Virus record (IMG/VR): IMGVR_UViG_3300027804_000045
Location: 32,001 to 96,000 of that record
DNA from: a virus
Length of the DNA: 64,000 nucleotides
Direction: 5' to 3' (one strand)
This document shows positions 1-17,391 of this stretch, piece by piece (position 1 is the first letter of the stretch; each line of letters starts with the position of its first letter). The notes under the pieces were generated by a model. It ran no database searches. It saw only the letters and a program-made list of their open reading frames with translations, and was not told the origin of the DNA. The translations under genes were made by a program, and so were the position numbers.

Positions 1-288
1 CTTATTCAATACATTCATAGTTCCATTGACATTGGTGATGTAATAGAGTATGGGCATAGTTTCACTCTTCCCAACATTAACTAGTGCGGCTAAGTGTATG
101 ACAGCATCATATGGATCAGTTTGATCGGGAATAGTGAATAATCTATTGATGTCTACTTTATAGAACTTATCTACAGGTACGATTGGGTCATTGATATCTA
201 ATCCATGAACCTCATAATTACCCTTCAGCATCTTGCATAGATGACTGCCTATATATCCACTACTTCCTGTTACTAATACCTTTTTCAT
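1..288 (-). CDS. galE: NAD-dependent epimerase (UDP-glucose 4-epimerase-like), 5' part; runs off the window
   Basis: Manual translation MKKVLVTGSSGYIGSHL...AVIHLAALVNVGKS...YYITNVNGT: Rossmann TGxxGYIG plus HLAA motif; ATGA overlap with upstream stop. Confidence 0.9.
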   Translation of the reverse strand, partial: MKKVLVTGSSGYIGSHLCKMLKGNYEVHGLDINDPIVPVDKFYKVDINRLFTIPDQTDPYDAVIHLAALVNVGKSETMPILYYITNVNGTMNVLNK

Positions 289-1616
289 AATCCCTCAAAT
301 AAGTTTTCATTTTCTACTGGCACAGTAAATGTTGGATCTTTACTCAACCATGTTTCTTTATCTGTATATATGATTGTATATCTGTGCCTGTTAGATAGTA
401 CGCTTTTGACATCATCGATACAAATCTGTGACCTATTCAAACTTTCAACGTAATCGCTATACTTTATTGTACTATGTGATAATATTCCTGCTGTAGTATT
501 ATTACTGATTTTTGGTTTAAAGTCTTTGAAACATTCGCTATACTTGTGAAATATACCATCTTCTAAAAACTGTTGTGTCTTTAGCACGCCTTCACTATAA
601 TACTTTTCCGGCTTGTCATACTTAGTGTATAGTTCAGACACAATTTTTGCCATGTTCTTTTTATTACAAGTGTAATAATGCTTCTTGTCAAAGTTATGTG
701 TCCAGCGCATGTTTTCTAATGCTACAGTTGGCATGTGTAGTTGCTGTTCAAGAAACGCAATGCCGTAACTTTCTACAGTGCTTGGATTGAATGCTACACG
801 ACAACTTGTGATGAAATCAATCTTTTCTTGCCCGACTACATCATAAGTGATCTTATAATCAGTGATTCCCAGATCACTAAACTTCTTTTCAAACTTCTTA
901 GCACCATTGTTGCTTGTAATAATTCTTGCTGGTAATCCAGTTTGCTTGATCAACTCAAGATATAGTTCTGGGTTCTTACCCTCTTCCCAACGACCAATAA
1001 ACAATACTCCTTCACGGTCATTATTATATTCAGTCAATAAATTTCGTTCAGGTAATGGTATAGGTAAGTGATATGATCCTTCAATCTGTAATCTATTATA
1101 GTTGCTTTGTGTACCTATATAGATGCTCGGCAATTGTAGCTGTAATCGCATCATATCATTGACACTATCTAAGAATGGATTCTTTGTATCTTTAAATAAC
1201 TGACTTTCTAAGTGGGTATAGGCAATGACCTGAATATAGTTTTCTAATCCTAGCGTACTAGCAACTTGTACAGCTTCATATGGATTACAGATGAAAACTT
1301 CATATAGATTTTTTCTTAATGCTTTGATGATACTTTCACGGAAGTTAGCCATGCGCTCATAGTTATAACTATCTCCATACATGAATATGTTTCTATGCTT
1401 GGCATAACTATATGCTTCATCAGGATAAATGACATTTGTATTCAGTAATTCAACGAATTCTTTATTATGCGGAACTGTATCAGTGATGATATCAACTTTA
1501 ATATTGTGGGCGGTCATAATTTCAATAAAACTTTTAGCATACTGACCTACACCGCCAGTCGCTTTCAAGTGTTCGCTACTCATGATGAACCCTATTCTTT
1601 TACTATAATTTCTCAT
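285..1616 (-). CDS. GT-B (GT4-like) glycosyltransferase
   Basis: GGVGQY N-terminal loop, FIGRWEEGKNP, PSTVESYGIAFLE (ExxxxxxxE motif); start set at ATGA overlap. Confidence 0.8.
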   Translation of the reverse strand: MRNYSKRIGFIMSSEHLKATGGVGQYAKSFIEIMTAHNIKVDIITDTVPHNKEFVELLNTNVIYPDEAYSYAKHRNIFMYGDSYNYERMANFRESIIKALRKNLYEVFICNPYEAVQVASTLGLENYIQVIAYTHLESQLFKDTKNPFLDSVNDMMRLQLQLPSIYIGTQSNYNRLQIEGSYHLPIPLPERNLLTEYNNDREGVLFIGRWEEGKNPELYLELIKQTGLPARIITSNNGAKKFEKKFSDLGITDYKITYDVVGQEKIDFITSCRVAFNPSTVESYGIAFLEQQLHMPTVALENMRWTHNFDKKHYYTCNKKNMAKIVSELYTKYDKPEKYYSEGVLKTQQFLEDGIFHKYSECFKDFKPKISNNTTAGILSHSTIKYSDYVESLNRSQICIDDVKSVLSNRHRYTIIYTDKETWLSKDPTFTVPVENENLFEGL

Positions 1617-1963
1617 ATAAAAGTTCTTGCTAATACTAAGCAACTTACTAATACCCATGCTGTATTAAACCACACCATAGTTGGTAATAACTTTTTGTTG
1701 CTTGCCCAAATCAATAAAAGGCTACTGATAAGTGTGATCAAGTAGAACCACCAAACAGTGGTATAGAATAATACTTGCGATACGATGATCGCCATCTTGC
1801 TCAAATAACTAGTTGCTTCGACAAAATTATAATTCGTCCAGTATTTGGGTGATACCCACATTAATAGACATTCTTTTACTTTTTCCCAACCAGTAAGGTA
1901 ATATGTTATACCAGTCAGCACTATACATGCTAAGATTGCTATGCTAATTTGTACTGATGTCAT
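1613..1963 (-). CDS. small multi-pass membrane protein
   Basis: 3-4 hydrophobic segments; ATGA coupling at both ends. Confidence 0.65.
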   Translation of the reverse strand: MTSVQISIAILACIVLTGITYYLTGWEKVKECLLMWVSPKYWTNYNFVEATSYLSKMAIIVSQVLFYTTVWWFYLITLISSLLLIWASNKKLLPTMVWFNTAWVLVSCLVLARTFI

Positions 1964-2187: not shown

Positions 2188-3051
2188 TCATGTACCCCAA
2201 GCATTCTTGAACAATGGCACTTGAATTCTATCGCTGTATCGTAGTCCATGCTTCATAGCAAGTTCTGCTACTGTGCGATTGTTTAGGCTGTATACACTTT
2301 CAACACCGCCTACTGGCATTAGATAAACATTACCAGTAAAGCCCACGCTACGATATATTTTTATTACCTCTAGTGCCTCTGTACAATCTTCATGTGATGC
2401 AATCACAAACTTTAGATATGTATGGCCTATATCTTGATAACCACATACAACTTCGGGTCGTATTGCTTCTTCTCTCTTCTCTCCGCTCACGCTTAGTTTT
2501 GCGCTTACACTGAATGTCACACTATCATATCCTCGTGTTAGATGCCAGTTCTTATCTTCCTGCCAACTTACAAGATATTCTGCTAGGTCTTTAGATAATT
2601 CTTGTGTACCATTCGTTTCAAAAGTAATCTCTTTGAGATTGTGCATCAATTCATGGTCAAGTAAATCCGGATAACTGCGCTGCCAACCTAGCAATGGCTC
2701 ACCACCTGTGATAACCAAATGTTCATCATTCCACTCTTTATATGGCAATATGTCAACAATATTTTCTGCTAGTTCATCTGTACTATATGTAGGGCTGAGT
2801 TTCTTGAAACGTACATCCCAACTTGCGTAACTATCACAACCAGTACTGACTAATGGCAATTCTTTATAGTCTTTATAATCTTTGGGGTTTACCTTGTGTC
2901 TCTCTTGCGACTTCTCGCCTCGTTTCATTCCAAAGCCATCGCAAGTGAAATTACAACCAAACGTGCGTAAGAACACGCTAGGCACGCCCATGTAACGTCC
3001 TTCACCTTGAATGCTATAGAATAGTTCGCTGACCTTGATTGACTTCTTCAT
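2188..3051 (-). CDS. queE: 7-carboxy-7-deazaguanine synthase (radical SAM)
   Basis: ELFYSIQGEG, FLRTFGC, TGGEPLL, FETNGT, YLMP motifs; Cx3Cx34C cluster variant. Confidence 0.92.
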   Translation of the reverse strand: MKKSIKVSELFYSIQGEGRYMGVPSVFLRTFGCNFTCDGFGMKRGEKSQERHKVNPKDYKDYKELPLVSTGCDSYASWDVRFKKLSPTYSTDELAENIVDILPYKEWNDEHLVITGGEPLLGWQRSYPDLLDHELMHNLKEITFETNGTQELSKDLAEYLVSWQEDKNWHLTRGYDSVTFSVSAKLSVSGEKREEAIRPEVVCGYQDIGHTYLKFVIASHEDCTEALEVIKIYRSVGFTGNVYLMPVGGVESVYSLNNRTVAELAMKHGLRYSDRIQVPLFKNAWGT

Positions 3052-3439
3052 TCAGATACCTTAGTAATTCTTTGTCTGTAGGTTGTACGTTATAGTTTTG
3101 TTTATAAAATATCTCATAACTATCGCTACCATACTTACCAATACCATACAACATATTAGCATCTACTTTGTCCCAAGTCAAGTAATCACGGCTCATACCG
3201 CGCAATCTCTTCTCCCTGATATTATACATACCGAGGGGCTTGATGATATCTATAACTTGTTCTGGTGTACTATTTAGGAGACTTTTTGCGTTTGGAAACT
3301 TTTTTAGGAACTTTGGAAGCACGTACTTTACTGGCTTTCTTCCTGTCTGGTTTAGCATTATCACTCCGACCATGTGTTCCCACTCGTTCTTTACTTGCTG
3401 TTGGACCATCAGATCGTCTCTTAGTGCTTTTACTTTCAA
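3014..3439 (-). CDS. MBD4-like HhH-GPD DNA glycosylase
   Basis: IMLNQT, KFP, IKPLG, LYGIGKYGSDSYEIF, QPTDKEL match the MBD4 glycosylase domain (LHGIGKYGNDSYRIF, HPEDHKL); TTG start with GGAG RBS. Confidence 0.85.
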   Translation of the reverse strand: MKVKALRDDLMVQQQVKNEWEHMVGVIMLNQTGRKPVKYVLPKFLKKFPNAKSLLNSTPEQVIDIIKPLGMYNIREKRLRGMSRDYLTWDKVDANMLYGIGKYGSDSYEIFYKQNYNVQPTDKELLRYLNEEVNQGQRTIL

Positions 3440-3608
3440 TTTGTTTCTCCCTTATTTTTAGTGTACCATCAACTATACCATACTCTGTAGTCTCAGTTAC
3501 CAATTGGTAACCATTGAAAACTACTATTTTTTCAGTGGTTTCACGCGCCAGAAAATCTCTGAACTCACAAAGACTATTCCATTTTAGTTTTTTAGGTGTG
3601 TATATCAT
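3270..3608 (-). CDS. hypothetical protein; basic C-terminal tail overlaps the glycosylase gene
   Basis: ATGA-coupled start; only the first ~55 aa lie outside the overlap. Confidence 0.45.
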   Translation of the reverse strand: MIYTPKKLKWNSLCEFRDFLARETTEKIVVFNGYQLVTETTEYGIVDGTLKIREKQIESKSTKRRSDGPTASKERVGTHGRSDNAKPDRKKASKVRASKVPKKVSKRKKSPK

Positions 3609-3913: not shown

Positions 3914-4128
3914 ACCCATGTTAACACGAACCACTCATAATCTTTAATATGTCTAAATCTTATAGTAAACAATCTATCGCCGTTTAGCGACCAAATAGTA
4001 TGTTTTCTATGTCCCGGGATGTTTTTTTGTAGCCACATCATCAATTCTTCAAATTGTTCATCTGATTTTACTTTGAAACTTGCTGTATACCAGTTGCGTT
4101 TATAATTATCCCACTTAGATGGATTCAT
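3910..4128 (-). CDS. hypothetical protein (small xxWFxLxW-ending family)
   Basis: Ends IRFRHIKDYEWFVLTWV; tiles the operon. Confidence 0.7.
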   Translation of the reverse strand: MNPSKWDNYKRNWYTASFKVKSDEQFEELMMWLQKNIPGHRKHTIWSLNGDRLFTIRFRHIKDYEWFVLTWV

Positions 4129-4888
4129 TTGGGTAAGGATCTATAACTTCGTTTTTTGTCATGTAATTATAGAATTTTTCGGCTATCTGTTTATGACCTA
4201 ACAACGTAGGATGTGAAGTCATTTCTACTCCCATACTGTTAATACTATAGAAACGCTTGTCATCACCACCAAACCAATTAAACTTTTTAACAAAATCCAT
4301 TTGCATTTTATCAAAATAAATTGTAGGATTAGCCATGCTTGAAAACAAATACCTTATATTATATTTTTCAAAAAACATACCCAATAGATTGATTTGTTGA
4401 AACCACAGCGCAGCCCAAAATTTATTATTAAATGTTTTATAATAACTTTCTAGAAACTGTTTGTCTATCTCGTCGGGACTGTCCCATGAAGGCCAATTAG
4501 GTATATCTCTTTCTCTAATAGTTTGATTTTGATTTACTAAAGTCCAACAGTCGTAATATTCGCTGAAATATTCTATCCTAGCAGGACCTGACCATTGTAT
4601 TACTGCTATCCATTCTGACATATCTTCATTGTTGTGAATTTTCGGTAGGAAAAAATCTAAAGTTTTACGGGCTATTCTATAATTGGAGCCACAACCCATG
4701 CTCTGATTATGAAATTCTGTACATGAAAATAAATCAGATAGATGCTTTGGCCAAGTCACACTTAAGCGCCATTTATTCAATTCTGTATCACAAGTATCAT
4801 TTAATAATTGGCCAGTATATTCATCGTGAAGTGTTTTTATTAGGTCGCCACCCCAGGTGAAACTACAACCATTGGCATATAATTTCAT
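4115..4888 (-). CDS. SGNH/GDSL-like protein (GCS-type)
   Basis: YANGCSFTWG, TWP, GCGSN, IQWS, HPT..GH motifs. Confidence 0.7.
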   Translation of the reverse strand: MKLYANGCSFTWGGDLIKTLHDEYTGQLLNDTCDTELNKWRLSVTWPKHLSDLFSCTEFHNQSMGCGSNYRIARKTLDFFLPKIHNNEDMSEWIAVIQWSGPARIEYFSEYYDCWTLVNQNQTIRERDIPNWPSWDSPDEIDKQFLESYYKTFNNKFWAALWFQQINLLGMFFEKYNIRYLFSSMANPTIYFDKMQMDFVKKFNWFGGDDKRFYSINSMGVEMTSHPTLLGHKQIAEKFYNYMTKNEVIDPYPNESI

Positions 4889-5346
4889 ACTCTATCGTCC
4901 ATTTCTTTCTTTATCCAACTATGCAAATTTTTATTTGCTTCTGCCTCGATGACACGTTCGCGTAATTCTGTAGTGCTGAAACTATGCTTACGTTTATTGA
5001 AATGAAATTTCATACCCATATCAATGCAAACTTCACGACCAGTAAAGTCACGATGTTCATATTCTTCACCTAGTATACGTATATTGATAGGATATGCTAA
5101 TAATATGTCAATCAATTCTTTTTCAGTGGCATAGACAACGATTTCGTCTACATACTTGCAAGCCTGTAATTGTGTGTACCTTTCAAATACGCTTTGCACA
5201 GGGCTATTTTTAGTAGGTCTATCAATAGTAGGATCAGTCTGTAGCCCTACGATGAGATAATCACAGACCTTCTTTGCATCTTTCAACATTAATATATGAC
5301 CTGCGTGAAACAGATCAAATGTTGCGCAAGTGAAGCCTACAGTCAT
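4885..5346 (-). CDS. cytidylyltransferase (glycerol-3-phosphate CT / TagD-like)
   Basis: FDLFHAGH (HIGH), GLQTDP, ER, YVDE, FSTTELR. Confidence 0.88.
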   Translation of the reverse strand: MTVGFTCATFDLFHAGHILMLKDAKKVCDYLIVGLQTDPTIDRPTKNSPVQSVFERYTQLQACKYVDEIVVYATEKELIDILLAYPINIRILGEEYEHRDFTGREVCIDMGMKFHFNKRKHSFSTTELRERVIEAEANKNLHSWIKKEMDDRV

Positions 5347-5816
5347 GTAGTCACCCACCATTCTTCCCAGGGGAATACGCACCATTCTGGATTTTCAAAT
5401 TTGTTAATTGCTAATCCATAGTAATCAACACTCTCATCGCTAGCTTCATTGTGTATACAGGTAGCAAATCTTACATTATGTCCCCAAACATTAGACCATT
5501 TGTCATCGTTAGGTAAGCAACTACTACGCCAGTCTTTTTTAATTTGACCTATGGTAAATCCTGTATCATTGATATCGTCAATCACAAGGATATTCTTACC
5601 ATTAAATGCATCTTCTGACATCCAACAATTAGTCTCGTCTTTACCTAAAGCATTCATAGGGATGTCAAGATAATGACTAAGTTTAACAGCAGGAACTAAT
5701 CCACCTCTCGTCACGCCAACAATATATTCAGGACGAAAATCATCCCTATACATTTGCCTTGCTATATTTAATATATAACTATTGATTTGTGCCGGGGTGT
5801 AATAAACTCTTTTCAT
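5343..5816 (-). CDS. gpt: purine (xanthine/guanine) phosphoribosyltransferase
   Basis: VTRGGLVPA, ILVIDDINDTGFT PRPP loop, WCVFPWE C-terminus. Confidence 0.85.
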   Translation of the reverse strand: MKRVYYTPAQINSYILNIARQMYRDDFRPEYIVGVTRGGLVPAVKLSHYLDIPMNALGKDETNCWMSEDAFNGKNILVIDDINDTGFTIGQIKKDWRSSCLPNDDKWSNVWGHNVRFATCIHNEASDESVDYYGLAINKFENPEWCVFPWEEWWVTT

Positions 5817-5817
5817 A

Positions 5818-6309
5818 TCATCCTTCGTATATGGCACTATTACTGTCATGCTCAAATACCTCTACACTTTTTACACGAACTTGTCCATTCACGATGATGC
5901 CTGGAGTCGCTTTCATTTCTTCAATGATCTCAGCCATCTTTTTGTATGCCATCTCAGCAAATTTTTCACAGCCTACTGCTGGAACGATGCGTAGATCAAG
6001 TATGCCTAGATCCTTGTAGCCACCTTTGATCTCAGCAAGTCTCTTAAATGTTTCAAGTTCTGGATCATCTTCAGCGACAAGCGTAGTATGATCAAACATA
6101 TATTCAGCCCATTGTTTGAACTTCTTTAGCCCGCCAAAGTCCATAACCCAGTTACGACAATCAAGTGTTTCCGCCTCAAAGACTAAACGTATGCCAATGC
6201 TGTATCCATGTATGAGGCTACAGTGGCTATGTGTGCTGCGCCATTGACGGAACGCGCAACTCAAGCCACGATCATTGCCATATGTCTTTGTGCTGTAATA
6301 CTTAGCCAT
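5818..6309 (-). CDS. queD: 6-carboxy-tetrahydropterin synthase (PTPS fold)
   Basis: SHCSLIHGY, WVMDFGGLK, FDH, GCE, VEVFEH...A.Y. Confidence 0.88.
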   Translation of the reverse strand: MAKYYSTKTYGNDRGLSCAFRQWRSTHSHCSLIHGYSIGIRLVFEAETLDCRNWVMDFGGLKKFKQWAEYMFDHTTLVAEDDPELETFKRLAEIKGGYKDLGILDLRIVPAVGCEKFAEMAYKKMAEIIEEMKATPGIIVNGQVRVKSVEVFEHDSNSAIYEG

Positions 6310-6469
6310 TCTTGTTCTCGTATTCTTCAGCAATCTTGTTCTTTAATGTTTCAAATAACGGATCCAATGCTATACTAGGATTTAATTCTAGTTCGGTATC
6401 AGTGATACAATTCTTGTCATAAATCACTACTACCTTATCACCCTTATTATTTTCAAATGTTAACTTCAT
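6302..6469 (-). CDS. hypothetical protein, 55 aa (not in ORF track)
   Basis: MKLTFENNKGDKVVVIYDK...EEYENKNG*; fills the sufE-queD gap with overlaps at both ends. Confidence 0.6.
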   Translation of the reverse strand: MKLTFENNKGDKVVVIYDKNCITDTELELNPSIALDPLFETLKNKIAEEYENKNG

Positions 6470-6891
6470 GTTGGTTCCCCTACAAATATTTTTGCCTGCT
6501 CTTTTACCATATTGAGCATGTTATATGCACCATTACGGCGATTCATGCTTAGTATATTACCTAAATCAAGTTCTGTCATCAGATTACGGTCATTCTCAAC
6601 GATATCTTTTGGACTGCTGCCACTATAGATATCGCTGACTAATGACACTGTGCCCTTCACGATAGCTGCATCACTATCACATAGATACTGAATAGTGCCA
6701 TTTTCATATTTAGGCACAAGCCATACTTGGCTCATGCACCCATGCACCTTGAAATTTTCTAATCTAAACTCTTCTGGAAATGGCTTTGCTTTACGTCCTA
6801 AGTCGATAAGGAACTTATAACGTTCAGTATTATCAACAAACATTGATAATATTGTTTTATACTGATCTATCTTTTGATTTATCAACGCCAT
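6466..6891 (-). CDS. sufE: Fe-S assembly sulfur acceptor
   Basis: RYKFLIDLG, VHGCMSQVWL, DSDAAIVKG, LSMNRRNG. Confidence 0.92.
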   Translation of the reverse strand: MALINQKIDQYKTILSMFVDNTERYKFLIDLGRKAKPFPEEFRLENFKVHGCMSQVWLVPKYENGTIQYLCDSDAAIVKGTVSLVSDIYSGSSPKDIVENDRNLMTELDLGNILSMNRRNGAYNMLNMVKEQAKIFVGEPT

Positions 6892-7094
6892 CCCCTCGCT
6901 ACGATTACTCCATATCTAAACATATGTTTTTCGACATCATGCTTTTCCAATGCTTCTTCAACTAATTTTATCATCTTTTCGCTATTACCACAAATGATTT
7001 CCAATGGAAATTCTTTTTGATTCATATAAACAAAATCTTCAACCATGACTGTTACATCACAGTGGCGAATACCATGTAAATCAAGCTTTCTCAT
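6882..7094 (-). CDS. stand-alone Smr-domain protein
   Basis: KLDLHG start, IICGNS. Confidence 0.75.
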   Translation of the reverse strand: MRKLDLHGIRHCDVTVMVEDFVYMNQKEFPLEIICGNSEKMIKLVEEALEKHDVEKHMFRYGVIVARGWR

Positions 7095-7437
7095 TTGGTA
7101 TAAAGTTTTTGTCTACGCTAGGTAAACAACCTGCAACTATCCACCACCAGAAATTGATGAATGGTACGAACCACAACAATACCCATAATGGATGTATGTC
7201 TGCGTCACGGCATCGCCTTACAGTTGTTGCTAGTGTTAGCCACACACTACCAACTAACCAGGCTAATGTTAGCACGATAATAAGAAAGCCACCGGTCATG
7301 GGACTAGCAAAAGCAACTATACCTGCTAATATAACTGAGACAACATATACCATCCAACCTACAAAAAATGTAAGTAGTGTAGTTGCCCAATATTCTTGGC
7401 GTTTTGCTAAACCTTGAAAACTAAAATATTTTGTCAT
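7081..7437 (-). CDS. DUF805 membrane protein
   Basis: YFSFQG.A.R.EYW, VRRCRD, LLWFVPF. Confidence 0.82.
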   Translation of the reverse strand: MTKYFSFQGLAKRQEYWATTLLTFFVGWMVYVVSVILAGIVAFASPMTGGFLIIVLTLAWLVGSVWLTLATTVRRCRDADIHPLWVLLWFVPFINFWWWIVAGCLPSVDKNFIPNEKA

Positions 7438-7825
7438 CAGTGATCTCTCCTATCCTTTTATAACCTTTAGTAGTTGGATGTACACCGTCGTTTGATAGAT
7501 ATGGAATACGTAAAGTCCAATCTTCAAACATCTCGGCGACATTTTCTACTGTTTGCTGAATCTCTAAATTATTAGCGGGTAGTATCCAATATACTTTATC
7601 TGCTTGAACACGATTACGCAAGTTGATCAATTCATTGATCGTCTTGATATTTTTATAGTCATTAGATCCTAGACTGATCACTACAATTTTGGCAGCAAAA
7701 TCAATCTTATATTTTCTATTGAAATCTCGGCTATTGATTCCAACTTGCGCATAACTGTCACATTCTGGTCTTGTAGAATGTGCCCCTACAGCTATGCTAT
7801 CACCAAGAAATAGACACTCAATCAT
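7421..7825 (-). CDS. SGNH/GDSL hydrolase
   Basis: GDSIA, SLGSND, DGVHP catalytic blocks. Confidence 0.85.
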   Translation of the reverse strand: MIECLFLGDSIAVGAHSTRPECDSYAQVGINSRDFNRKYKIDFAAKIVVISLGSNDYKNIKTINELINLRNRVQADKVYWILPANNLEIQQTVENVAEMFEDWTLRIPYLSNDGVHPTTKGYKRIGEITDDKIF

Positions 7826-8292
7826 TCTGTATACCTCTTTTGATTTTCTGCTTGCCAAACACGCTCACGCAAGTTCGTGCTACTGAAACTATGATCTCTT
7901 CCATTGAACACAAGTTTTATCTTACGCTTCTCGCAAATTGCTCGACCAGTGAACTCACTTTGCATATACTCAACACCTAATATGCGAACGTCAATTGGTA
8001 ATGTGAGCAATATATCTTCTAGGTCCTTTTCGCTATTGTAGACAACAATTTCGTCTACAAAACGCACAGCACTTAGTTGAATCTGACGTTCAACTAAACT
8101 CTGAATAGGTGCGTTCTTTTGTGGTCTATCCCAGCTTGCGTTATTTTGCAATCCGCAAATCAAGTAATCACAATGATTCTTTGCCTCTGCTAACATAGCA
8201 ATATGACCTGCATGTAATAGGTCAAACTGACTAAAGGTAATACCAATAATCAGTCCCTTATCCTTCAAATCTTTTACTTTGTTGAATATCAT
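7822..8292 (-). CDS. second TagD-like cytidylyltransferase
   Basis: FDLLHAGH, ER, FVDE, HSFSSTNLR; paralog of 4885..5346. Confidence 0.88.
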   Translation of the reverse strand: MIFNKVKDLKDKGLIIGITFSQFDLLHAGHIAMLAEAKNHCDYLICGLQNNASWDRPQKNAPIQSLVERQIQLSAVRFVDEIVVYNSEKDLEDILLTLPIDVRILGVEYMQSEFTGRAICEKRKIKLVFNGRDHSFSSTNLRERVWQAENQKRYTE

Positions 8293-8525: not shown

Positions 8526-8676
8526 TTGCCACCTTGTTGGTATCAATAATAATTTCTAATGCCTGCTTAAGCAACTTCTCTAGTTCCCAAAGTTTCTTTT
8601 CGTTGAGTTCTAGTTTGGCTTCTAATGTACAGACCTTAGTGAATAACTCTGTGTCGAAATCACTTCCTTCTTTCAT
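8515..8676 (-). CDS. hypothetical coiled-coil protein, 53 aa (not in ORF track)
   Basis: MKEGSDFDTELFTKVCTLEAKL...VANGI*; ATGA overlap with folE stop. Confidence 0.6.
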   Translation of the reverse strand: MKEGSDFDTELFTKVCTLEAKLELNEKKLWELEKLLKQALEIIIDTNKVANGI

Positions 8677-9425: not shown

Positions 9426-10187
9426 TCAATCAATATAACCCTTATTTTTAAGATAAGGAATCATGATTTTGTCAACTAAAGCTTTATTTTGTTCTGTAGA
9501 TGGATGCGTTCCTAATTCTTTTATTTCAGGGTACCCGGATTCATTTATAAACCAGTCCCATGCATTGTCAATAGGTAACCATTGGTTCCAGTCTATCATA
9601 TCATGTAAATTTTGTATATCTGGGTGCAATGGTAATTTAAGATCGTTATCATTAAAACTTGTTCTAAAAGTCCATTGGTTAATATTAGTGAAAAAATACT
9701 TGATGTTTAATTTTTCACATAGCCACTGTACCCTTAATATATTTTCTAAAGTTTGGATCGCGCTACCCTTATAGTCATAAAAATTTTTATAATAATTTTT
9801 ACTTAATTCATCGTCCCATAATGGCTGTATTAGGTAATAATTTTTATTTGGATCTTCCATATCTATGCTACAAGGATTACTATAATTATAAATTCCCCAA
9901 TCTATTTTACAATAGTCGTATGGTTTAGTTTCTGAGAAAAATTCTTGTCTCGTATGACTACTCCACATGATGCCAACCAAAATTTCTTCTGGTTTATATG
10001 ATTTTAAAACTTTATTAATGTAGTAAATAGCTCTTTTACTAATAATACCATTACTACCTGCACCCTGACCAAGATATAAGACTTCACAACCTAAAAATTC
10101 TGCTAAAGGTTTTGGCCAGTTTGTTGCTGTGTTCGGTACTTGTGTATAACTACAGCCTAAAGTTATTAGTAATTTAGGATTTGCCAT
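9426..10187 (-). CDS. SGNH-like protein (GCS-type)
   Basis: LGCSYT, NWP, GAGSN, IMWS, HPS. Confidence 0.7.
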
Positions 10188-11214
10188 TTGCGAATACACC
10201 GTTGTATTGCTGCGTCACTCTTACAAAAGTCGTACACTTGCTTAGATTTTTTAAACTATCAGCGCCTACGTATGTGCAGGTACTGCGTATACCACCTAGT
10301 ATATCAAGGACAGTACTACCTACTGGGCCGCGATATGGAACACGTACTGTGCGACCTTCGCTACTACGATACTCAGCAACACCACCATTATGTTTATTCA
10401 TGGCAGTATCGCTGCTCATACCATAAAACATACGATATTGCTTATCCCCTTCTAGGATGATTTCTCCACCGCCCTCATCATGTCCAGCAAACATGCCGCC
10501 TAGCATCACAAAATCAGCCCCGGCGCCAAAGGCTTTAGCGACATCACCAGGGCAAGTGCAGCCACCGTCAGCAATAATATGACCACCAAGACCATGAGCC
10601 GCATCGGCGCACTCAATGATTGCTGAGAGTTGAGGATATCCCACACCAGTTTGTATGCGAGTAGTACACACACTGCCAGGACCAATGCCAACTTTAATGA
10701 TATCTGCTCCACGTAATATCAACTCCTGTGTCATATCTGCTGTAACAACGTTACCAGCAATAATTGTTTTCTTTGGATACTTCTCACGAATCTTACTGAC
10801 AAATATACCAAAGTGTTCACTATAACCATTAGCAACGTCAATACAGATATATTGAATTTCTGGATATACATTAAAAATCTGTTGTAATCTTTCTAAATCT
10901 TTATCACTGGTACCAGTACTGACAGCAAAATAGTCAGTACCAATCTTAAAAATACTATCAGCAATCATATCAAATGTATGACTCTTAGTCAAGCAAGTGA
11001 ATAGTTTGTGACGGCTGATTTCTTCAGCCATACCAAGTGTGCCAACACCGTCCATGTTAGCAGCCATGATGGGGATACCGTTATAGACTTTGCCGCTATG
11101 TTTGAAAGTATACTTACGTTCAAGGTCTACCTCTTTACGGCTACTCAACGTACTACGTTTAGGACGGAATAGTACGTCTTTAAAATCTAACTTGATATCT
11201 TCTTCAATTCTCAT
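10174..11214 (-). CDS. guaC: GMP reductase
   Basis: [47 protein letters not shown]; 346 aa. Confidence 0.96.
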
Positions 11215-11278
11215 TTTCTCTGATGCTCTTCGTAATAGGTAAAGGAACAAATTGCGCTACAAAAATATATTGTAACAT
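11204..11278 (-). CDS. possible 24-aa leader peptide overlapping the guaC start
   Basis: [24 protein letters not shown], preceded by AAGGA RBS. Confidence 0.35.
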
Positions 11279-11967: not shown

Positions 11968-13137
11968 TTAGTATTTGCTTTCTCTTGTATGCTTACGATA
12001 ATCCGTAGTCATACGTAACCATTGCTCACCCTTGCCTTCAAGGATGTCGCATATTCTATCTATCGTCTTATCAGTCCAGTCGCTAATTTGTCCAATTCGT
12101 GGATGCTCATTGAATACCCAGTGATTGAGTTTATTCAATGCGTCATCTTGCGACCAAGGCACATACAATCGTGTATGATCGTTAGCAAACGTTTCTGGGA
12201 AACTGCGATATGCTGGATATACAACATTACAACCTAATGCGTCCGCTTCGCTGACAGTGTTGCTGACCCAGTCTTGCAAAGCACAGTTGAATAATACACG
12301 GCTGTCATTCAATATTCCATAATATTCGTCTTTACTGAGGTCGCTATAGATGCTTAGTTTGCCTTCATCTTGTAATCTATAAGTTCGTTCCATATATGAA
12401 CTATTATTGCTACGTAGTTTTGCACCACTCAATAATGCGAATTCAACGTCACCGTTGTGCATCTTTGTGTACTTTTCAATGATGTCCATATAAAAGTCGG
12501 GTTGCTTTTCTTGATCCCAACGTGCAGCAAAAACGACTCGTCGCTTTTTCAACTCAAATGGTTTGACAGATTTTACACGACTACGCACTTCATCTTTACC
12601 AAATGCTAGACCACTGATATTGTAGATAGGAGCCTTCCAGCCCGCGACCTTCATATGCATGACCATCTCTTCGTTGCTAGCAAGAATGATACAAAACTCA
12701 TTGATCATTTCTTCATACTTACGCATGAAACCTTCCATGCCCCATACGTGTAAGAAATCATCAGGATCGATAGTTTGTGCCAAGCAACGAACAAAAATCT
12801 TTGGACGATACTGTTCCGGAACTTGTTTGATAATGTATGCTAGGCTCTCAAGACCTGATGTATACATATCTTCAAAATAAATCACATCGTCACTAGTGAC
12901 TTCGCCACTTTTCATCAACTTGATTAGATTAGCCATCTGTGTGAGGCTATAATGTGTGCGACCATGTGCGTCAAGCACCTGACCTACTACGATGTTTTGA
13001 TCGCTAGATAGCGTATCGCCGGGAACGATAACATAATGTATTCCGCGATTCCTAAATACACGCTCATTCCAGTCAGTTAGTTGTAATGTATAGCGAGCCT
13101 TGTATGGCTCAAGTCCCATGTAAAATAATTTTCTCAT
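11968..13137 (-). CDS. phage GT-B glycosyltransferase
   Basis: FAARWDQEKQPDF, ALQDWVSNTVSEA, YPAYRSFPE donor-binding lobe. Confidence 0.8.
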   Translation of the reverse strand: MRKLFYMGLEPYKARYTLQLTDWNERVFRNRGIHYVIVPGDTLSSDQNIVVGQVLDAHGRTHYSLTQMANLIKLMKSGEVTSDDVIYFEDMYTSGLESLAYIIKQVPEQYRPKIFVRCLAQTIDPDDFLHVWGMEGFMRKYEEMINEFCIILASNEEMVMHMKVAGWKAPIYNISGLAFGKDEVRSRVKSVKPFELKKRRVVFAARWDQEKQPDFYMDIIEKYTKMHNGDVEFALLSGAKLRSNNSSYMERTYRLQDEGKLSIYSDLSKDEYYGILNDSRVLFNCALQDWVSNTVSEADALGCNVVYPAYRSFPETFANDHTRLYVPWSQDDALNKLNHWVFNEHPRIGQISDWTDKTIDRICDILEGKGEQWLRMTTDYRKHTRESKY

Positions 13138-13174: not shown

Positions 13175-13183
13175 ATATTATTA

Positions 13184-13393
13184 TCAAGCTGACTTACTGT
13201 CAAGCTCCCACATGTCCTTGAAGGGCTTTCCTTGCATGTATTTCGTAAATTGCCTGAAGGCAAAACTACGATTACTATACAGTTCAGCCTCGTCAAACTT
13301 ATAACCATATAAACGACAGAAGTTACGATAACCGTCAAGATCATCAAAAATCTGATTTACCTGGTTGTTTGAACGCTTTTCATTTCTAGACAT
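13184..13393 (-). CDS. hypothetical protein
   Basis: IFDDLD.YR.FCR.YGY.FDEA.LY; AGGAG RBS and own promoter. Confidence 0.75.
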   Translation of the reverse strand: MSRNEKRSNNQVNQIFDDLDGYRNFCRLYGYKFDEAELYSNRSFAFRQFTKYMQGKPFKDMWELDSKSA

Positions 13394-13426
13394 TTTCTAT
13401 CTCCTAATTAAGTTGAACACAAGTTT

Positions 13427-13455
13427 ATAATAACAGAAAGATATTTAAAAATCAA
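13427..13455 (-). promoter_or_regulatory. sigma70-type promoter
   Basis: TTGATT-17-TATTAT with TG extension. Confidence 0.6.
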
Positions 13456-14567
13456 ACATCTTTCCACCCAGCCTGTCGCATCAAATGATGCGCCCAAACC
13501 AAATGACCTAAATATGTTGGGTGATTATTATGGTAAATTTGACCCGGTACAGATTTCATACCTATATAATCATGCAAACGATGTATCGCTTCAACCTCAC
13601 TTTCCATCCATTCTAGTGGTATAATCAAATTTTTGCCTACTTCACGCTTATAGTCATCAAATACATAAGCCATGATCATATATACATTTACGTCACTGTG
13701 ATTAACTAATTTGGCTGTATGTGTGATCCAATTTGTTTCAATAAATTTGAAATTATAATCTCTTTTATTGCTTACAAATTTTGTAAAATTTCTCCACATA
13801 ATACCTTCAATTGGGCATGCCGTGAAACTATTTAGGATTCTATTAAAGTGTTCAAAGAAAATTTCATCATACATTGCTAACCAATCTACGATGTGAATTT
13901 TATTATCTATCGGATAGTTAAACCAATCATTTATTGGATGCGATTTAAAAAGTTTAGTATCAGATATATTAAGTTCCCTGCTAGGATCGGTCAATTGCAT
14001 AGATACATAAACCTTTTTATATCCTAATGTAGCAACGTGTTTTAGTATCCTTTCTAAATCGGTATGCATATACAGATTACAATTACCTGGAATAGCAAAT
14101 TGATAATAGTCCCAGCCTGTAGCCTCGGCAATTCTAGCACCAAAGCAGTATTGTAATTGTATGTCTAAATGGTATTGACCCACGCCGGTCGCGATCTGTC
14201 GCGTCATATCGTATGGATCAAATAAAATTTCTCCATAGGTCCAGCTCTCTCCAATGTTCACAAATAGTGTATCACTACCTCGTATAACATGAAACTCTGT
14301 ATTTTTTACCGGATTTTCAATCATGATTGGTTTCATGTTGTCATCAGTCATCAAGATTTTTGACGCGGTAAGACTGGTTTGGCCAAATCTCCAGTCAGTT
14401 TGACTCCCGGACCTATGTTTAGATGGATCTAGCTCATAATAATTAGATTTTTCAATTATATTTGGTTCAGGATGGCGTCCTGTAAAAGTTGGTGAAAATG
14501 GAACAGCCTGTCTATTAGGCTTGAGTGCATCCAGCCTGTCTTTAAGGATGTTAAAACTTTCAGTCAT
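13452..14567 (-). CDS. SGNH-like protein (GES-type)
   Basis: IGESWTYG, AIPGNCN, LTDPSR, NNHPT..GH. Confidence 0.65.
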   Translation of the reverse strand: MTESFNILKDRLDALKPNRQAVPFSPTFTGRHPEPNIIEKSNYYELDPSKHRSGSQTDWRFGQTSLTASKILMTDDNMKPIMIENPVKNTEFHVIRGSDTLFVNIGESWTYGEILFDPYDMTRQIATGVGQYHLDIQLQYCFGARIAEATGWDYYQFAIPGNCNLYMHTDLERILKHVATLGYKKVYVSMQLTDPSRELNISDTKLFKSHPINDWFNYPIDNKIHIVDWLAMYDEIFFEHFNRILNSFTACPIEGIMWRNFTKFVSNKRDYNFKFIETNWITHTAKLVNHSDVNVYMIMAYVFDDYKREVGKNLIIPLEWMESEVEAIHRLHDYIGMKSVPGQIYHNNHPTYLGHLVWAHHLMRQAGWKDV

Positions 14568-15019
14568 TATATGACTATGTTTAGATTTGGTTTTGTGGTA
14601 TTGTAACGAATCGTGGCACCGTTCTCACCATCTTCACTGACAGTGATTTCAATGTCACGGCCTGGGTAACGACTAGCAATAACTTCATAGAGGTCATCGC
14701 TAATCATCTCACAACTCTTGAAGTTTAGTTCCAGTGTGCCTTGGTAGAGACTTTCTAACCAACGCTTGAACTGGATAAACTCAATATCCCTATCGTTGTG
14801 AAATACTTCAATGCTTACGTTGAAATGAAAAATGTGCCTGTGTTCGTTTGCGAGAAACGCAACATCTGCAAGTTTAGGATCTGTAGCAGCAGCAGGAAAT
14901 TTATGAATACCTTCACGCTGAAGGGTAACCCAAATAAATCGTTTGGCTGCGTTGCTAATGCGAACACGTTTATCAGCCATAGCCTGTTCTGCTTGATAGA
15001 TTACTGGATCTTCACTCAT
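14567..15019 (-). CDS. QueD-like T-fold protein, DpdL-type (putative CDG decarboxylase)
   Basis: LANEHRHIF (LxxxHRHxF), DRDIEF, KSCEMI, VSEDGENGA. Confidence 0.7.
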   Translation of the reverse strand: MSEDPVIYQAEQAMADKRVRISNAAKRFIWVTLQREGIHKFPAAATDPKLADVAFLANEHRHIFHFNVSIEVFHNDRDIEFIQFKRWLESLYQGTLELNFKSCEMISDDLYEVIASRYPGRDIEITVSEDGENGATIRYNTTKPNLNIVI

Positions 15020-15192: not shown

Positions 15193-15193
15193 G

Positions 15194-16744
15194 TTAGTTC
15201 TCCAAAACTTCATTGATAGCCTCATCACTATCTTCTATTGTTTCTTCAACCTCTTCCTCAACTTTTTCAACACTAAACAATTCATCAAACATCGTCATAG
15301 CATTCACAGTACGCTTACCGCTGATGCCCTGACTACCACTCTGCATTTGCATCCAGAACTTGTTATAGTATTCTATCACATTCAAACTATCTTCTCTAGT
15401 TTTCTGGCTGAATACTTCATCTACAACTTTACCGAAATAGATACCAAAATTCTCATTCATGATCATCTTGGGAATCACACCTTGTTCATACTGGCGATTC
15501 GCCTCTTGGACAGCGGTGATATGCTGATATACATTATGGGCTTGAATCAATGTGTATGAAAGTGTATCCCAACTTGTTTTTGTCTCTTTACCTTGATTAT
15601 TTATGAAACCCTGCCCACGATAGCATAGGTCGCGTATCATCATTCGTTCAGTCACAGGACTGTCAGTGAAAACTTCATGTATGCCGTCTGCGATTACAGC
15701 ATCGCTAAACTTGCGATTGTCGTTGGCATAGTCTTTGCTCTCGGCGGTCTTTTCCATGCTATATGACCACTTCTTGTCGTGTTCAATATTAGTGTTGAAA
15801 TATGCTAGACCTTTAGCAGCGCCATAGAATGGGCTAGCACAGTCAAATGTAATCATAAAGTTTGGGTTATGATACTTACGTATTGCCTTTTGGATGTCAC
15901 TAAAAAGTACAGCATATTCCATGATACTAGTACCAAGGCAGTGTAACAAGTCATGCTTGCCAGGAATTAAAAGGCCATCATGGATAATATGTACGAGGCG
16001 CTTCAGCATCAAGTGAATATCAATCTTGTTTTGGCCACCGAACGCCCAGCCATTGAAATGATTATCTGGGTAGATATTTGGGTCGCAATACTTTTTCATT
16101 TCTTGATACCAGTCATCACTTTGCTTGTGATTACGACCCTGCATTACGTTTAAGAATTTACAACGACCATCACGGTTCTTGATAAAGTATTCGTTGTTGA
16201 TATGTGTGGCTGCAATCGCTTCTTCAATTGTGCTGATACCATGCGCACTCTTGCCGGTTTTCTTATCCTTGATATGATACGTGGTCAAACTCTGTGATGG
16301 AATATCAAGACACATACCATAATCCATATATGTATCCATCCACTTCAAAACGGCCTTGCGCTTTTCTAGTGCGCGTGGGCAGTTAGGGTCTTTCCAATCT
16401 GCTGGCCACTGACACTTGAGAATCTGGAATCCGCCACTATCTCCTAACATGAACGTGCCTGGCTCTCTGCGTCTAATGATACTTTCGGCTGGATCGTCCA
16501 CATTAATATCAAGGTTGGCATGACCCGCACTATAGAGACCCCACTTATAAGTGTATAAGCCTTGTGTACTATTCAAAAAATTAAGGCATTCAACATCACC
16601 ATTGAACCCTGCAGGGACACGTTCAGCAGGAAAGTAATTCTCACCTTCGCGCTGCTTTCCTAGCCCACTAATAAAGAATGAACTAACTGCGGGCAAGAAT
16701 AATGCCCAATCTGGATTTTGTTGTTTGGATAAGTCAATAGTCAT
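15194..16744 (-). CDS. dpdA: TGT-fold base-exchange transglycosylase (DpdA-type)
   Basis: GDSGGFQ, CLDIP, VMQG, GWAFGG, HCLG, TFDCASP, AHN motifs; no CxCxxC Zn site; folE/queD/queE context. Confidence 0.75.
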   Translation of the reverse strand: MTIDLSKQQNPDWALFLPAVSSFFISGLGKQREGENYFPAERVPAGFNGDVECLNFLNSTQGLYTYKWGLYSAGHANLDINVDDPAESIIRRREPGTFMLGDSGGFQILKCQWPADWKDPNCPRALEKRKAVLKWMDTYMDYGMCLDIPSQSLTTYHIKDKKTGKSAHGISTIEEAIAATHINNEYFIKNRDGRCKFLNVMQGRNHKQSDDWYQEMKKYCDPNIYPDNHFNGWAFGGQNKIDIHLMLKRLVHIIHDGLLIPGKHDLLHCLGTSIMEYAVLFSDIQKAIRKYHNPNFMITFDCASPFYGAAKGLAYFNTNIEHDKKWSYSMEKTAESKDYANDNRKFSDAVIADGIHEVFTDSPVTERMMIRDLCYRGQGFINNQGKETKTSWDTLSYTLIQAHNVYQHITAVQEANRQYEQGVIPKMIMNENFGIYFGKVVDEVFSQKTREDSLNVIEYYNKFWMQMQSGSQGISGKRTVNAMTMFDELFSVEKVEEEVEETIEDSDEAINEVLEN

Positions 16745-17391
16745 AATATATCAGTATCGTTCCTGTCGTAGAATCGAACACGTTTGATTAAATCATAATC
16801 ATGTTGATAAAAAGATGTTAAGCTTTCAATAAAATTTGTATTTTCTGTAGCATACTGTTTTAATACATTAAAGAATCTTATTTTTTCTGGGCTATAATAC
16901 ATGTAGTTATTACGCAAGTTTTTAGCATTAATTCTTTTGTGGTTTAAATCACGAAATTTACATGAAACAAAATGCTCTAGATTGGGTATCAAATTTTTAT
17001 CCATATAAAAAAAGGTAATTTGATCTGTATCTAATCCCTCTAGGAAATTACGCTGTAGTTCTGTGTGTTCATCAAAAAACTTTCTGTCACAAATAAATTT
17101 TATAACATCGCTATTTTCTTTTTGCATGATATCTTGATGAAATCTAAAAAAATACTCTGTGACACCGCTAAACCATCTGTCTATTGGATCTCTTAAACAA
17201 ACTACATATCTTTTATTTTTAAAATTTTTATAGTTAAAACCTTTTGTAAAATTAAAGTTCTGTGTAAAATAATTTTTAAGCAATGTACTTGCACATTTAG
17301 GTATAGGTATATACCCATATTCAAAATCTTCTACAGTTAAAATATCTCCCCAACCATGAAAAAAATATTGATTGTAACGTTCAAGTCTCAT
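16741..17391 (-). CDS. sulfotransferase (Sulfotransfer_2-like)
   Basis: IPKCAST (5'-PSB) and LRDPIDRWFSG (3'-PB) PAPS motifs; C-terminal FYQHDY. Confidence 0.75.
   Translation of the reverse strand: MRLERYNQYFFHGWGDILTVEDFEYGYIPIPKCASTLLKNYFTQNFNFTKGFNYKNFKNKRYVVCLRDPIDRWFSGVTEYFFRFHQDIMQKENSDVIKFICDRKFFDEHTELQRNFLEGLDTDQITFFYMDKNLIPNLEHFVSCKFRDLNHKRINAKNLRNNYMYYSPEKIRFFNVLKQYATENTNFIESLTSFYQHDYDLIKRVRFYDRNDTDIL

Follow-up and report, generated by a model that had tools for sequence, protein, structure and literature searches.

A glycosyltransferase gene linked to a QueC-less deazaguanine DNA-modification module in a viral contig: a candidate route to sugar-bearing 7-deazaguanine

Does a phage that makes 7-deazaguanine for its DNA also attach a sugar to it? 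The question is raised by a gene block at positions 1-17391 of a 64,000-nucleotide stretch of viral DNA (the window), bases 32001-96000 of the 150.7-kb linear IMG/VR contig IMGVR_UViG_3300027804_000045, whose CheckV completeness is 43%. Genes for the synthesis of 7-carboxy-7-deazaguanine (CDG) are interleaved there with genes of a sugar-handling type, and an earlier note, made from the letters alone, had proposed that this phage may attach sugar, polyol-phosphate, acyl or sulfate groups to CDG or 7-deazaguanine in its DNA. The answer turns on one glycosyltransferase (GT2, positions 11968-13137), as distinct from a second (GT1, positions 285-1658), and on its partnership with two proteins, DpdL and a long DpdA. 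On gene content and linkage, the balance tips slightly toward a QueC-less DpdL/DpdA-type replacement of DNA guanine that has been extended by a dedicated glycosyltransferase, so that the final DNA base would bear a sugar. To our knowledge, the deazaguanines described in DNA carry only small groups.

All genes of the block, like every plausible gene between positions 1 and 22761, are on the minus strand, many of them sharing 1-14 bases with a neighbour. Minus-strand open reading frames (ORFs) of at least about 85 amino acids, plus one of 70, were scanned against Pfam, and those left unexplained were also compared with NCBIfam, PHROGs and PADLOC. The earlier note had described a co-oriented, tightly coupled block of FolE, QueD, QueE, a DpdL-like T-fold protein, a DpdA-type enzyme of the tRNA-guanine transglycosylase (TGT) fold, GalE, two GT-B glycosyltransferases, two cytidylyltransferases, four SGNH-like proteins and a sulfotransferase, next to a clamp and a family B DNA polymerase (PolB), and every one of these gene classes was found where it had been placed. 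Block genes that it does not mention are a Gpt-like phosphoribosyltransferase (PRTase), a GMP reductase, an HhH-GPD protein, SufE and DUF805. The window has no megablast match among 50,697 phage records, the set used for all comparisons with cultured phages. The genes that carry the argument are as follows.

2188-3051, minus strand: QueE-like radical S-adenosylmethionine (SAM) enzyme, 7-carboxy-7-deazaguanine synthase (five QueE NCBIfam models, E 1e-12 to 1e-16)
5818-6333, minus strand: 6-carboxytetrahydropterin synthase of the QueD/PTPS family (PF01242, 60.8 bits; TIGR03367)
8673-9353, minus strand: FolE, GTP cyclohydrolase I (PF01227, 205 bits)
11968-13137, minus strand: GT2, glycosyltransferase of GT-B/GT4 fold, 389 amino acids (AlphaFold2 model, predicted local distance difference test [pLDDT] 77; Foldseek GT4 matches)
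14567-15019, minus strand: DpdL, QueD-like T-fold protein and proposed CDG decarboxylase, 150 amino acids (phrog_17812; LxxxHRHxF motif)
15194-16744, minus strand: long DpdA-like DNA-guanine transglycosylase of predicted TGT fold, 516 amino acids with a disordered acidic tail (DSGGFQ motif)
17704-18426, minus strand: sliding-clamp-like protein, flanking replication gene (phrog_12062)
18500-21205, minus strand: PolB, flanking replication gene (PF00136, 138 bits; PF03104, 84 bits)

The first step is to ask whether the phage makes a deazaguanine at all. By homology, FolE, QueD and QueE would convert GTP to CDG, and DpdL is a T-fold protein proposed to decarboxylate CDG to 7-deazaguanine. All five QueE matches fall under their curated cut-offs, and the protein is 48% identical to the QueE of the Synechococcus phage BUCT-ZZ01. 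DpdL carries FLANEHRHIFHF, which fits the signature LxxxHRHxF (L-ANE-HRH-I-F); in DpdL this signature replaces the QueD motif CxxxHGH (Cui et al. 2023, PMC10516641). Pairwise comparison gives 35% identity to CGPG_00067 of phage phiST (E 2e-18), and identity to the DpdL of phage ACP17 (gp125) reaches 57%. The gene is encoded together with FolE, QueD, QueE and DpdA and without QueC: no QueC, QueF or Pfam TGT family (PF01702) was found across the whole contig, itself 43% complete. This agrees with the earlier note, which had seen no QueC, QueF or Gat-QueC in the window and had suggested looking for queC in the rest of the genome. A weak QueF match on the contig is the FolE gene itself and is attributed to the shared T-fold.

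This core composition matches, with good support, the published QueC-less pathway of phiST, in which FolE, QueD, QueE, DpdL and DpdA3 occur without QueC and guanine is fully replaced by 2'-deoxy-7-deazaguanosine (dDG) (PMC10516641). The two phages share FolE, QueD and QueE without QueC, an orthologous DpdL with the same motif, and a gene for a TGT-fold enzyme next to polymerase genes.

The enzyme that would place the base in DNA is where the window departs from phiST. Its DpdA-like protein is twice as long as that of phiST (516 versus 259 amino acids) and marginally alignable with phiST DpdA3 (hhalign 64%), and it has no match in Pfam, NCBIfam, PHROGs or PADLOC. Searches of PDB sequences with phmmer and with a 46-sequence profile returned chance matches only, and Pfam applied to eight related DpdA proteins gave a single weak TGT match (BCSR5, E 0.04). 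HHpred was likewise required for DpdA3 and DpdA4 (Cui et al., PMC10516641). The assignment comes from the predicted fold. A Foldseek search of the PDB with the AlphaFold2 model (pLDDT 88) gave 179 matches at E <= 0.001, the best 50 of which are all TGTs (E about 4e-7), and VIA gave Z 18.6 to 1iq8 (298 residues aligned, root-mean-square deviation 4.9) and Z 18.4 to 2ash. The protein reads LGDSGGFQ at residues 100-107, and D102, S103 and G105, along with D147 (in CLDIP), H268 and D301 (in ITFDCASP), are invariant in 46 diverse family members. The contexts of D301 and D147 resemble what we take to be the TGT motifs FDC and DEC, a likeness of motifs rather than of superposed residues. The family comprises 810 clusters at 50% identity, with thousands of metagenomic members; three distant representatives (P0139, P0141 and P0166) have no IMG/VR loci. 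By hhalign, the window protein is related to ACP17 gp123 (96%) and to a 416-amino-acid protein of BUCT-ZZ01 (95%), so that ACP17, a phage named in PMC10516641, has both the same DpdL and a related DpdA.

The nearest cultured relatives of this DpdA are found in PA5oct-like Pseudomonas jumbo phages (34% identity) and then in Phosso. The PA5oct order, PolB, clamp-like, x, DpdA, X, DpdL, ..., QueE, mirrors that of the window, and the window's clamp-like protein shares 33% identity with a product encoded between PolB and DpdA of PA5oct and 29% with that of a Phosso gene annotated 'sliding clamp'. PA5oct DNA is resistant to restriction at G-containing sites and is a target of nucleases that detect modified G (PMC12191111), and Iyer et al. 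had already listed this phage as having a deazaguanine system. For the exchange of guanine for 7-deazaguanine by the predicted DpdA, the restriction resistance of PA5oct is the evidence at hand, and it is indirect. Because the core is that of phiST and PA5oct joins the same gene order to restriction resistance, a deazaguanine very likely replaces G, and deazaguanine modification of the DNA of the window's phage can be held with high confidence.

Some features of these core genes are recorded here in their own right. The QueD homologue reads CSLIHGY in place of the CxxxHGH signature given by Cui et al., with Tyr for the second zinc-binding His of the motif. DpdL forms the C-terminal part of longer ORFs in Vibrio phage Bakedbeans (gp176; L094:11212-12363, 383 amino acids) and Chryseobacterium phage MA9V-3 (L097:11431-12312, 293 amino acids); their N-terminal parts have no Pfam match, and the fusion partner may indicate what DpdL works with. 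A conserved ORF of 173-181 amino acids with the motif GKEVEHTPAY lies between DpdA and DpdL in two distant metagenomic lineages (L101:11668-12189, L104:11609-12154); it matches nothing in Pfam and none of the window ORFs that were compared with it by blastp (E <= 1e-4). In 23 relatives a PP-loop ATPase of 208 amino acids (L062:5187-5813; PF01171, 111 bits), which is not on the window's contig, stands upstream of PolB and about 5 kb upstream of DpdA, and in phage X1 a PAPS_reduct-type gene (PF01507) adjoins FolE; by analogy with QueC, either could activate the CDG carboxylate. PolB ends in NSTFDDLFSFG, and the DpdA-like protein has TMFDELFS just ahead of its disordered acidic tail (pLDDT < 50 from residue 471). 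If this is a shared clamp-docking peptide, it would couple base exchange to replication.

The sugar question begins with the distribution of GT2. When the window's GT2 was compared by tblastn with the phage records, six records matched, all of them DpdL phages. A hidden Markov model (HMM) built from the window's clade additionally matched, in PA5oct, a gene placed between DpdA and DpdL and, in Phosso, the 'glycosyltransferase' beside DpdL; its iteration added no phage. With three GT2 members as tblastn queries, X1 and Phosso included, full-length matches were obtained in 18 records, all within the 29 DpdL records. Five partial matches in PhiXhv-12-type Xanthomonas phages lie in a GlmS/BshB-like context and were treated as another GT4 family. 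The cultured groups that bear GT2 are the PA5oct-likes, ACP17, X1/BUDD, BCSR5, BUCT-ZZ01 and Phosso, and GT2 adjoins dpd genes in cultured phages despite rearranged gene order.

ACP17: QueD-x-FolE-x-DpdA-GT2-DpdL-QueE
PA5oct: DpdA-GT2-DpdL-x-SDR-PRTase-QueE (SDR, short-chain dehydrogenase/reductase)
X1: FolE-PAPS_reduct-x-x-GT2-DpdA-DpdL-QueE
BCSR5: GT2-DpdA, 2.7 kb from DpdL
BUCT-ZZ01: QueE-PRTase-x-QueD-FolE-GT1-DpdA-DpdL-GT2
Phosso: PolB-x-clamp-glycosylase-DpdL-GT2-x-FolE

Five other DpdL phages, RHph_I1_18, Bakedbeans, Ahp1, D479 and MA9V-3, have no GT2-profile match and no long-DpdA-profile match anywhere in their genomes, so it is the long DpdA, not DpdL itself, that GT2 accompanies. 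The contrast with phiST is of the same kind. A GT4-fold glycosyltransferase is an obligate neighbour in the window's system, whereas no such gene occurs within 9 kb of the phiST DpdL; none of the GT2 match lists includes the phiST group, and 'glycosyl' appears nowhere in PMC10516641. A possible exception to the triad of DpdL, long DpdA and GT2, or else a fragment, is the 349-kb Vibrio phage 2.275.O._10N.286.54.E11, which has a partial long-DpdA match (MG592671.1 330306-330917; 44% of the query, 30% identity) and is in neither the DpdL nor the GT2 match lists.

Metagenomic loci extend the pattern. In IMG/VR the window's clade (DpdA 73-97% identical) is represented by 80 loci, with a backbone of PolB, clamp, DpdA, DpdL, a 69-residue ORF (o69), GT2, FolE, nucleotidyltransferase, QueD, QueE, GT1 and GalE; SGNH, sulfotransferase-like, GuaC, PRTase, SufE and HhH genes are present in some of these loci and missing from others. 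In two distant lineages (DpdA 40-45% identical) DpdL is again followed by GT2. A cross-lineage HMM places a GT2-family gene 114-1771 bp after DpdL in all 42 loci that have at least 3.5 kb after DpdL. The 42 include loci with a DpdA 76-78% identical to the window's but only about 24% identity in the GT2 slot, as in L027, L028 and L032, which suggests that glycosyltransferases are swapped within a conserved module. The neighbourhood profiling of this gene with DpdL and DpdA that the earlier note had called for therefore returned co-occurrence throughout (18 of 18 records, 42 of 42 loci). Since records are not independent, a fair count is six cultured and about three metagenomic lineages. GT2 is probably a component of the deazaguanine pathway.

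What kind of enzyme GT2 would be is indicated by its predicted fold. Foldseek returned PimA, OtsA, GlgM, MshA and BshA (E about 1e-10, template-modeling [TM] score 0.6-0.68), so that the closest structures are retaining GT4 enzymes. The Pfam Glycos_transf_1 match (PF00534) scores 18.1 bits, under the gathering cut-off of 26.4, and some 95%-identical homologues bear a precomputed PF00534 match. A BFVD fold search yielded only ACP17 gp124, generic glycosyltransferases of viruses and a 370-residue viral protein that may be the BCSR5 homologue. Nine sequences from distant lineages share 22 invariant residues, among them R206, E210, K211 and E297, which presumably line the nucleoside-diphosphate-sugar (NDP-sugar) site, an assignment by GT4 motif rather than by superposition. 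An N-terminal EP..RYT motif is kept in all lineages and suggests a common acceptor. The isoelectric point (pI) was set aside as a discriminator, an acidic value not deciding between DNA and a small molecule as acceptor.

GT2 could belong to the pathway and still leave no sugar in the final DNA, by adding a transient handle or a solubilising or self-protection group, or by acting as a non-catalytic partner for the long DpdA. Its tracking of the long DpdA subfamily instead of DpdL would fit such a role, as would its acidity and its resemblance to small-molecule glycosyltransferases. So would the outcome of expressing DpdL and DpdA of phiST or ACP17 in E. coli, where no dDG was formed and other enzymes may be required (PMC10516641). 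However, the invariant residues expected to bind the NDP-sugar argue for catalysis, the lineage-specific tailoring genes described below and the swapping of glycosyltransferases look like the diversification of an exposed end product, and no sugar-removing glycosidase was identified. A sugar that is absent from the finished DNA is accordingly rated as quite unlikely, and the reading in which it is retained is followed further here.

If a sugar is retained, its donor should be accounted for, and the block has four further genes of a suitable kind.

1-288, minus strand: N-terminal 96 residues of a GalE-like SDR epimerase (full gene of 278 amino acids at contig 31452-32288, upstream of the window)
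285-1658, minus strand: GT1, GT-B/GT4-like glycosyltransferase, 457 amino acids, ExxxxxxxE motif (PF00534, 22.6 bits, below gathering)
4885-5385, minus strand: CTa, HIGH-motif nucleotidyltransferase, RfaE-II/TagD-like (PF01467, 57.9 bits; TIGR02199, 73 bits; TIGR01518, 55 bits)
7822-8292, minus strand: CTb, HIGH-motif nucleotidyltransferase (PF01467, 45 bits; TIGR02199, 68 bits)

The full GalE-like gene matches TIGR01179 (galE, 153 bits, below cut-off) and is kept at the module end in every clade relative reaching that far. The best homologue of GT1 (37% identity) lies between FolE and DpdA in BUCT-ZZ01; those of X1 and BUDD are elsewhere in their genomes, and matches in Erwinia pEa_SNUABM phages are partial (52-56%). 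Both nucleotidyltransferases match RfaE domain II (heptose-1-phosphate adenylyltransferase) best, slightly above TagD. Within the clade CTb keeps its place between FolE and QueD and is present in all relatives extending past FolE; the PF01467 matches of other GT2 phages mostly correspond to long NMNAT-like genes located far outside the module. Relatives carry other sets. An SDR epimerase directly follows GT2 in L101 and L104, and the L101 module also holds a radical SAM/SPASM gene and a DegT aminotransferase fragment. A fusion of a nucleotidyltransferase with a phosphomannose isomerase (PMI) cupin stands directly ahead of GT2 in 13 relatives, an SDR fragment lies between DpdL and the PRTase in PA5oct, and an APS-kinase-like gene occurs in six relatives. 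In eight relatives a 2-oxoglutarate-Fe(II) oxygenase (PF13640; L027:9589-10146 and seven others) directly follows DpdA; such a hydroxylase could create a hydroxyl handle for a sugar.

The remaining genes of the block are mostly variable accessories.

3014-3439, minus strand: small HhH-GPD (EndoIII/MutY-like) protein, 141 amino acids, accessory (PF00730, 35.5 bits)
4115-4888, minus strand: DUF6071 SGNH-like protein, paralogue a, variable accessory (PF19547, 32.5 bits, above gathering)
5343-5855, minus strand: Gpt-like purine PRTase (PF00156, 37.6 bits; NF006613 XPRT, 35.7 bits, below cut-off)
6466-6891, minus strand: SufE sulfur-acceptor protein, accessory (PF02657, 119 bits)
7081-7437, minus strand: DUF805 (Pfam scan)
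7421-7858, minus strand: short GDSL/SGNH-like protein, accessory (PF13472 and PF00657 borderline; GDSIAVG and DGVHPT motifs)
9426-10199, minus strand: DUF6071 SGNH-like protein, paralogue b, variable accessory (PF19547, 29.6 bits, above gathering)
10174-11250, minus strand: GuaC, GMP reductase (NF003470, 563 bits, cut-off 397)
13184-13393, minus strand: o69, conserved ORF of 69 amino acids between DpdL and GT2 (in nearly all clade relatives and lineage L101)
13452-14567, minus strand: SGNH-like protein of 371 amino acids, rare accessory insert (by motifs only, GESWTYG and HNNHPT)
16741-17391, minus strand: sulfotransferase-like protein, variable accessory (ESM Atlas viral clusters in which 15-20% of members have PF03567, TM 0.78)

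The four SGNH-like proteins have a common block I and a C-terminal HP[ST]. Paralogues a and b match each other at E 7e-10 (block I GCSFTWGG), and the protein at 13452-14567, which has no HMM match in the libraries scanned, occurs in only 2 of the 80 relatives. By tblastn the four genes have no further copy on the 150-kb contig, all detected copies lying within a 10-kb block; in relatives, different SGNH genes occur close to PolB, and the family appears to be expanding locally. The sulfotransferase-like protein, placed by its ESM Atlas neighbours, has no HMM match in Pfam, PHROGs, NCBIfam or PADLOC and is 26-40% identical in relatives or absent. The HhH-GPD gene adjoins QueE, overlaps ORF 3270-3608 with its 5' part and occurs in few relatives. 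Since the END nucleases of hosts detect hypermodified DNA by means of an inactive EndoIII domain (PMC12191111), the phage copy could be a decoy, a repair enzyme or a helper. Phosso has a gene of 177 amino acids annotated 'glycosylase', with no Pfam match, between clamp and DpdL.

The PRTase and GuaC raise the possibility of a different route. In tubercidin clusters, FolE, QueD, QueE, PF00156 and PF00478 without QueC form a signature (bioRxiv 10.64898/2026.04.15.718813), and the window likewise combines QueC-less, CDG-based synthesis with PF00156 and PF00478 genes. By such a route the PRTase would couple CDG or 7-deazaguanine to phosphoribosyl pyrophosphate, the GMP-reductase homologue would deaminate the product, and the nucleotides would enter DNA through the polymerase or act as antimetabolites. 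The genes do recur in the module: PRTase homologues stand beside QueE in BUCT-ZZ01 and PA5oct, and both genes lie inside the L104 module. Within the clade, however, the PRTase is variable and GuaC is found in about half of the relatives, and since many close relatives keep DpdA, DpdL, GT2, FolE, QueD and QueE without them, they cannot be essential steps. The window also has a conserved TGT-fold base exchanger and DpdL, and by its model score its GuaC is a genuine GMP reductase. Pfam scans of the ORFs in the block gave no UbiD decarboxylase, a family present in tubercidin clusters, and no adenylosuccinate enzyme or Nudix phosphatase, a contig-wide search for them not having been made. A nucleotide route of this type is therefore very improbable. 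Salvage of the guanine released by base exchange would explain both genes more simply: replacing every G of a genome several hundred kb long, multiplied by the burst size, frees by rough estimate millions of guanines per cell. A Gpt-type enzyme could return these to GMP and thence to GTP, the substrate of FolE, and GuaC would rebalance the pool toward IMP.

The sugar-type genes themselves could have another destination. The phage may make plain dDG, as in phiST, or the corresponding CDG nucleoside (dCDG), while the glycosyltransferases, epimerase, nucleotidyltransferases, SGNH and sulfotransferase-like proteins form a separate kit, accumulated in a plastic early-gene region, that remodels the host outer polysaccharide or glycosylates virion proteins, for example to block superinfection. 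Comparable clusters of epimerases, cupin isomerases, HIGH nucleotidyltransferases and several glycosyltransferase families, sporadic and polymorphic among jumbo phages and cyanophages, have been read as tools for diversifying host-surface polysaccharides (Iyer et al. 2021, PMC7824862). The same gene types are polymorphic between relatives here, and the SGNH, sulfotransferase-like, APS-kinase-like and cupin genes are sporadic even among close ones. For the block genes other than GT2, a host-surface glycan role is a serious rival.

Several further points weigh against a sugar on the DNA base. The region is an insertion hot spot, since it also holds unrelated accessory genes such as SufE, DUF805 and GuaC. 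Linkage within the window's clade partly reflects shared ancestry, and not every GT2 lineage has GT1, the small nucleotidyltransferases and GalE. The nearest solved neighbours of GT2 act on lipids or small molecules, and GT2 proteins are acidic (pI 5.4-6.2), which gives no support for DNA as the acceptor. Plain 7-deazaguanine, with neither a hydroxyl nor an amine at C7, has no evident site for a sugar. We know of no retaining GT4 enzyme that acts as a C-glycosyltransferase. Finally, phiST achieves full replacement by plain dDG without GT2 or any other glycosyltransferase (PMC10516641).

A separate surface kit leaves the central observations unexplained, however. It does not account for the restriction of GT2 to DpdL records with a long DpdA, nor for its adjacency to dpd genes through the rearrangements of six cultured lineages and in every one of the 42 metagenomic loci, and the eight-gene stretch of ACP17 leaves little room for an unrelated passenger. 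Unlike the clusters of Iyer et al., the window's genes are interleaved with a DNA-modification pathway to which one glycosyltransferase family is exclusive. No polyprenyl-phosphate transferase, flippase or polymerase family was found among the block ORFs scanned with Pfam, in which only DUF805 and one small hydrophobic ORF look membrane-bound. A plain deazaguanine beside an independent surface kit is thus unlikely, though it is the strongest of the alternatives.

How might a glycosylated deazaguanine be made? In the proposed mechanism, the long divergent DpdA, encoded beside clamp and PolB, would swap the deazapurine for guanine in replicated DNA, and GT2, as its gene linkage suggests, would move a sugar from an NDP-sugar onto deazaguanine. 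It may act on the base already in DNA or on the free base before exchange; in the latter variant the long DpdA would insert a bulky base, by analogy with eukaryotic TGT and queuine. The GalE-like epimerase and HIGH-type nucleotidyltransferases may supply the donor, GT1 may extend the sugar, and the variable SGNH, sulfotransferase-like and other tailoring genes may diversify it; SufE may support the Fe-S cluster of QueE. Candidate attachment sites are N2, O6 and C7 (by a C-glycosidic bond), to which the CDG carboxylate would be added should DpdL not be a decarboxylase. The proposal of the earlier note is thus upheld in part: GT2 linkage and the nested sugar genes favour the sugar, while the acyl, sulfate and polyol-phosphate parts remain speculation, since most of the nucleotidyltransferase genes, and the SGNH and sulfotransferase-like genes as a whole, belong to the variable accessories. 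For the window's phage, acyl or sulfate decoration is unlikely.

Three known systems help to place this mechanism. Phage NDP-sugar genes and glycosyltransferases build glycosylated cytosines on DNA, as in the glucosyl-5-hydroxymethylcytosine of T-even phages (T4 alpha- and beta-glucosyltransferases) and the arabinosyl-5-hydroxycytosine of RB69 and DLP3 (PMC13326640). The window shares with them GT-B and NDP-sugar genes among replication genes, sugar sets that vary between related phages and, probably, the purpose of escaping restriction. In contrast, a thymidylate-synthase homologue provides those systems with a hydroxylated pyrimidine as acceptor, while the acceptor of the window would be a purine analogue, and GT1 and GT2 have no tblastn match to RB69, T4 or DLP3. 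A pyrimidine target of the T4 type was rejected, as the contig has no thymidylate-synthase homologue (PF00303) and relatives have only canonical ThyA; three larger relatives have one ThyA each with the dUMP-type PFNIASY (Asn), scoring 347-357 bits, all of these genomes, the contig included, being incomplete.

The second system, huimycin, shows that a sugar can feasibly be attached to a deazaguanine-type base, in both chemical and enzymatic terms. In huimycin and dapiramicin biosynthesis, HuiG adds the sugar to a free 7-deazapurine base at its N2 amine (PMC7439116), and its cluster family is tagged PF13439 (bioRxiv 10.64898/2026.04.15.718813). Both systems join a FolE-QueD-QueE core to a glycosyltransferase for a deazaguanine-type base; GT2 is set beside HuiG by the activity described for the latter, not by sequence. 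Unlike the window's candidate product, huimycin is an actinomycete secondary metabolite built on preQ0 (QueC being present), O-methylated and free rather than inserted into nucleic acid. The third system is that of phiST, from which the window differs further in that its module nests a purine PRTase, a GMP reductase and sugar-nucleotide genes. The DpdL/DpdA system is therefore known, and what appears to be new is the pairing of a long DpdA with an obligate GT4 enzyme in a module that also nests sugar genes; among open-access papers and preprints, none was found that links a glycosyltransferase to DNA deazaguanines.

Because GT2 is exclusive to these phages and the nested sugar genes are lineage-specific, glycosylated 7-deazaguanine is a supported, if unproven, hypothesis. 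The chances appear evenly balanced that the window's clade and PA5oct, ACP17, X1/BUDD, BCSR5, BUCT-ZZ01 and Phosso all carry a GT2-glycosylated 7-deazaguanine, diversified lineage by lineage with a second hexose, amino-sugar, acyl or sulfate groups. The six cultured phage groups with the triad of DpdL, long DpdA and GT2 make the question directly testable. If the hypothesis is true, it could explain why DpdL and DpdA failed when expressed alone, why nucleases that recognise hypermodified bases sense PA5oct-type DNA, and what role the very abundant long-DpdA family plays, and it would provide new enzymes for labelling or protecting DNA. All sugar-decorated DNA bases that we know to have been described are pyrimidines, namely glucosyl-hydroxymethylcytosine, base J and arabosyl-5-hydroxycytosine-type derivatives such as arabinosyl-5-hydroxycytosine. 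A glycosylated deazapurine would therefore be a new chemical class of genome modification and the first sugar-bearing purine analogue known in any genome.

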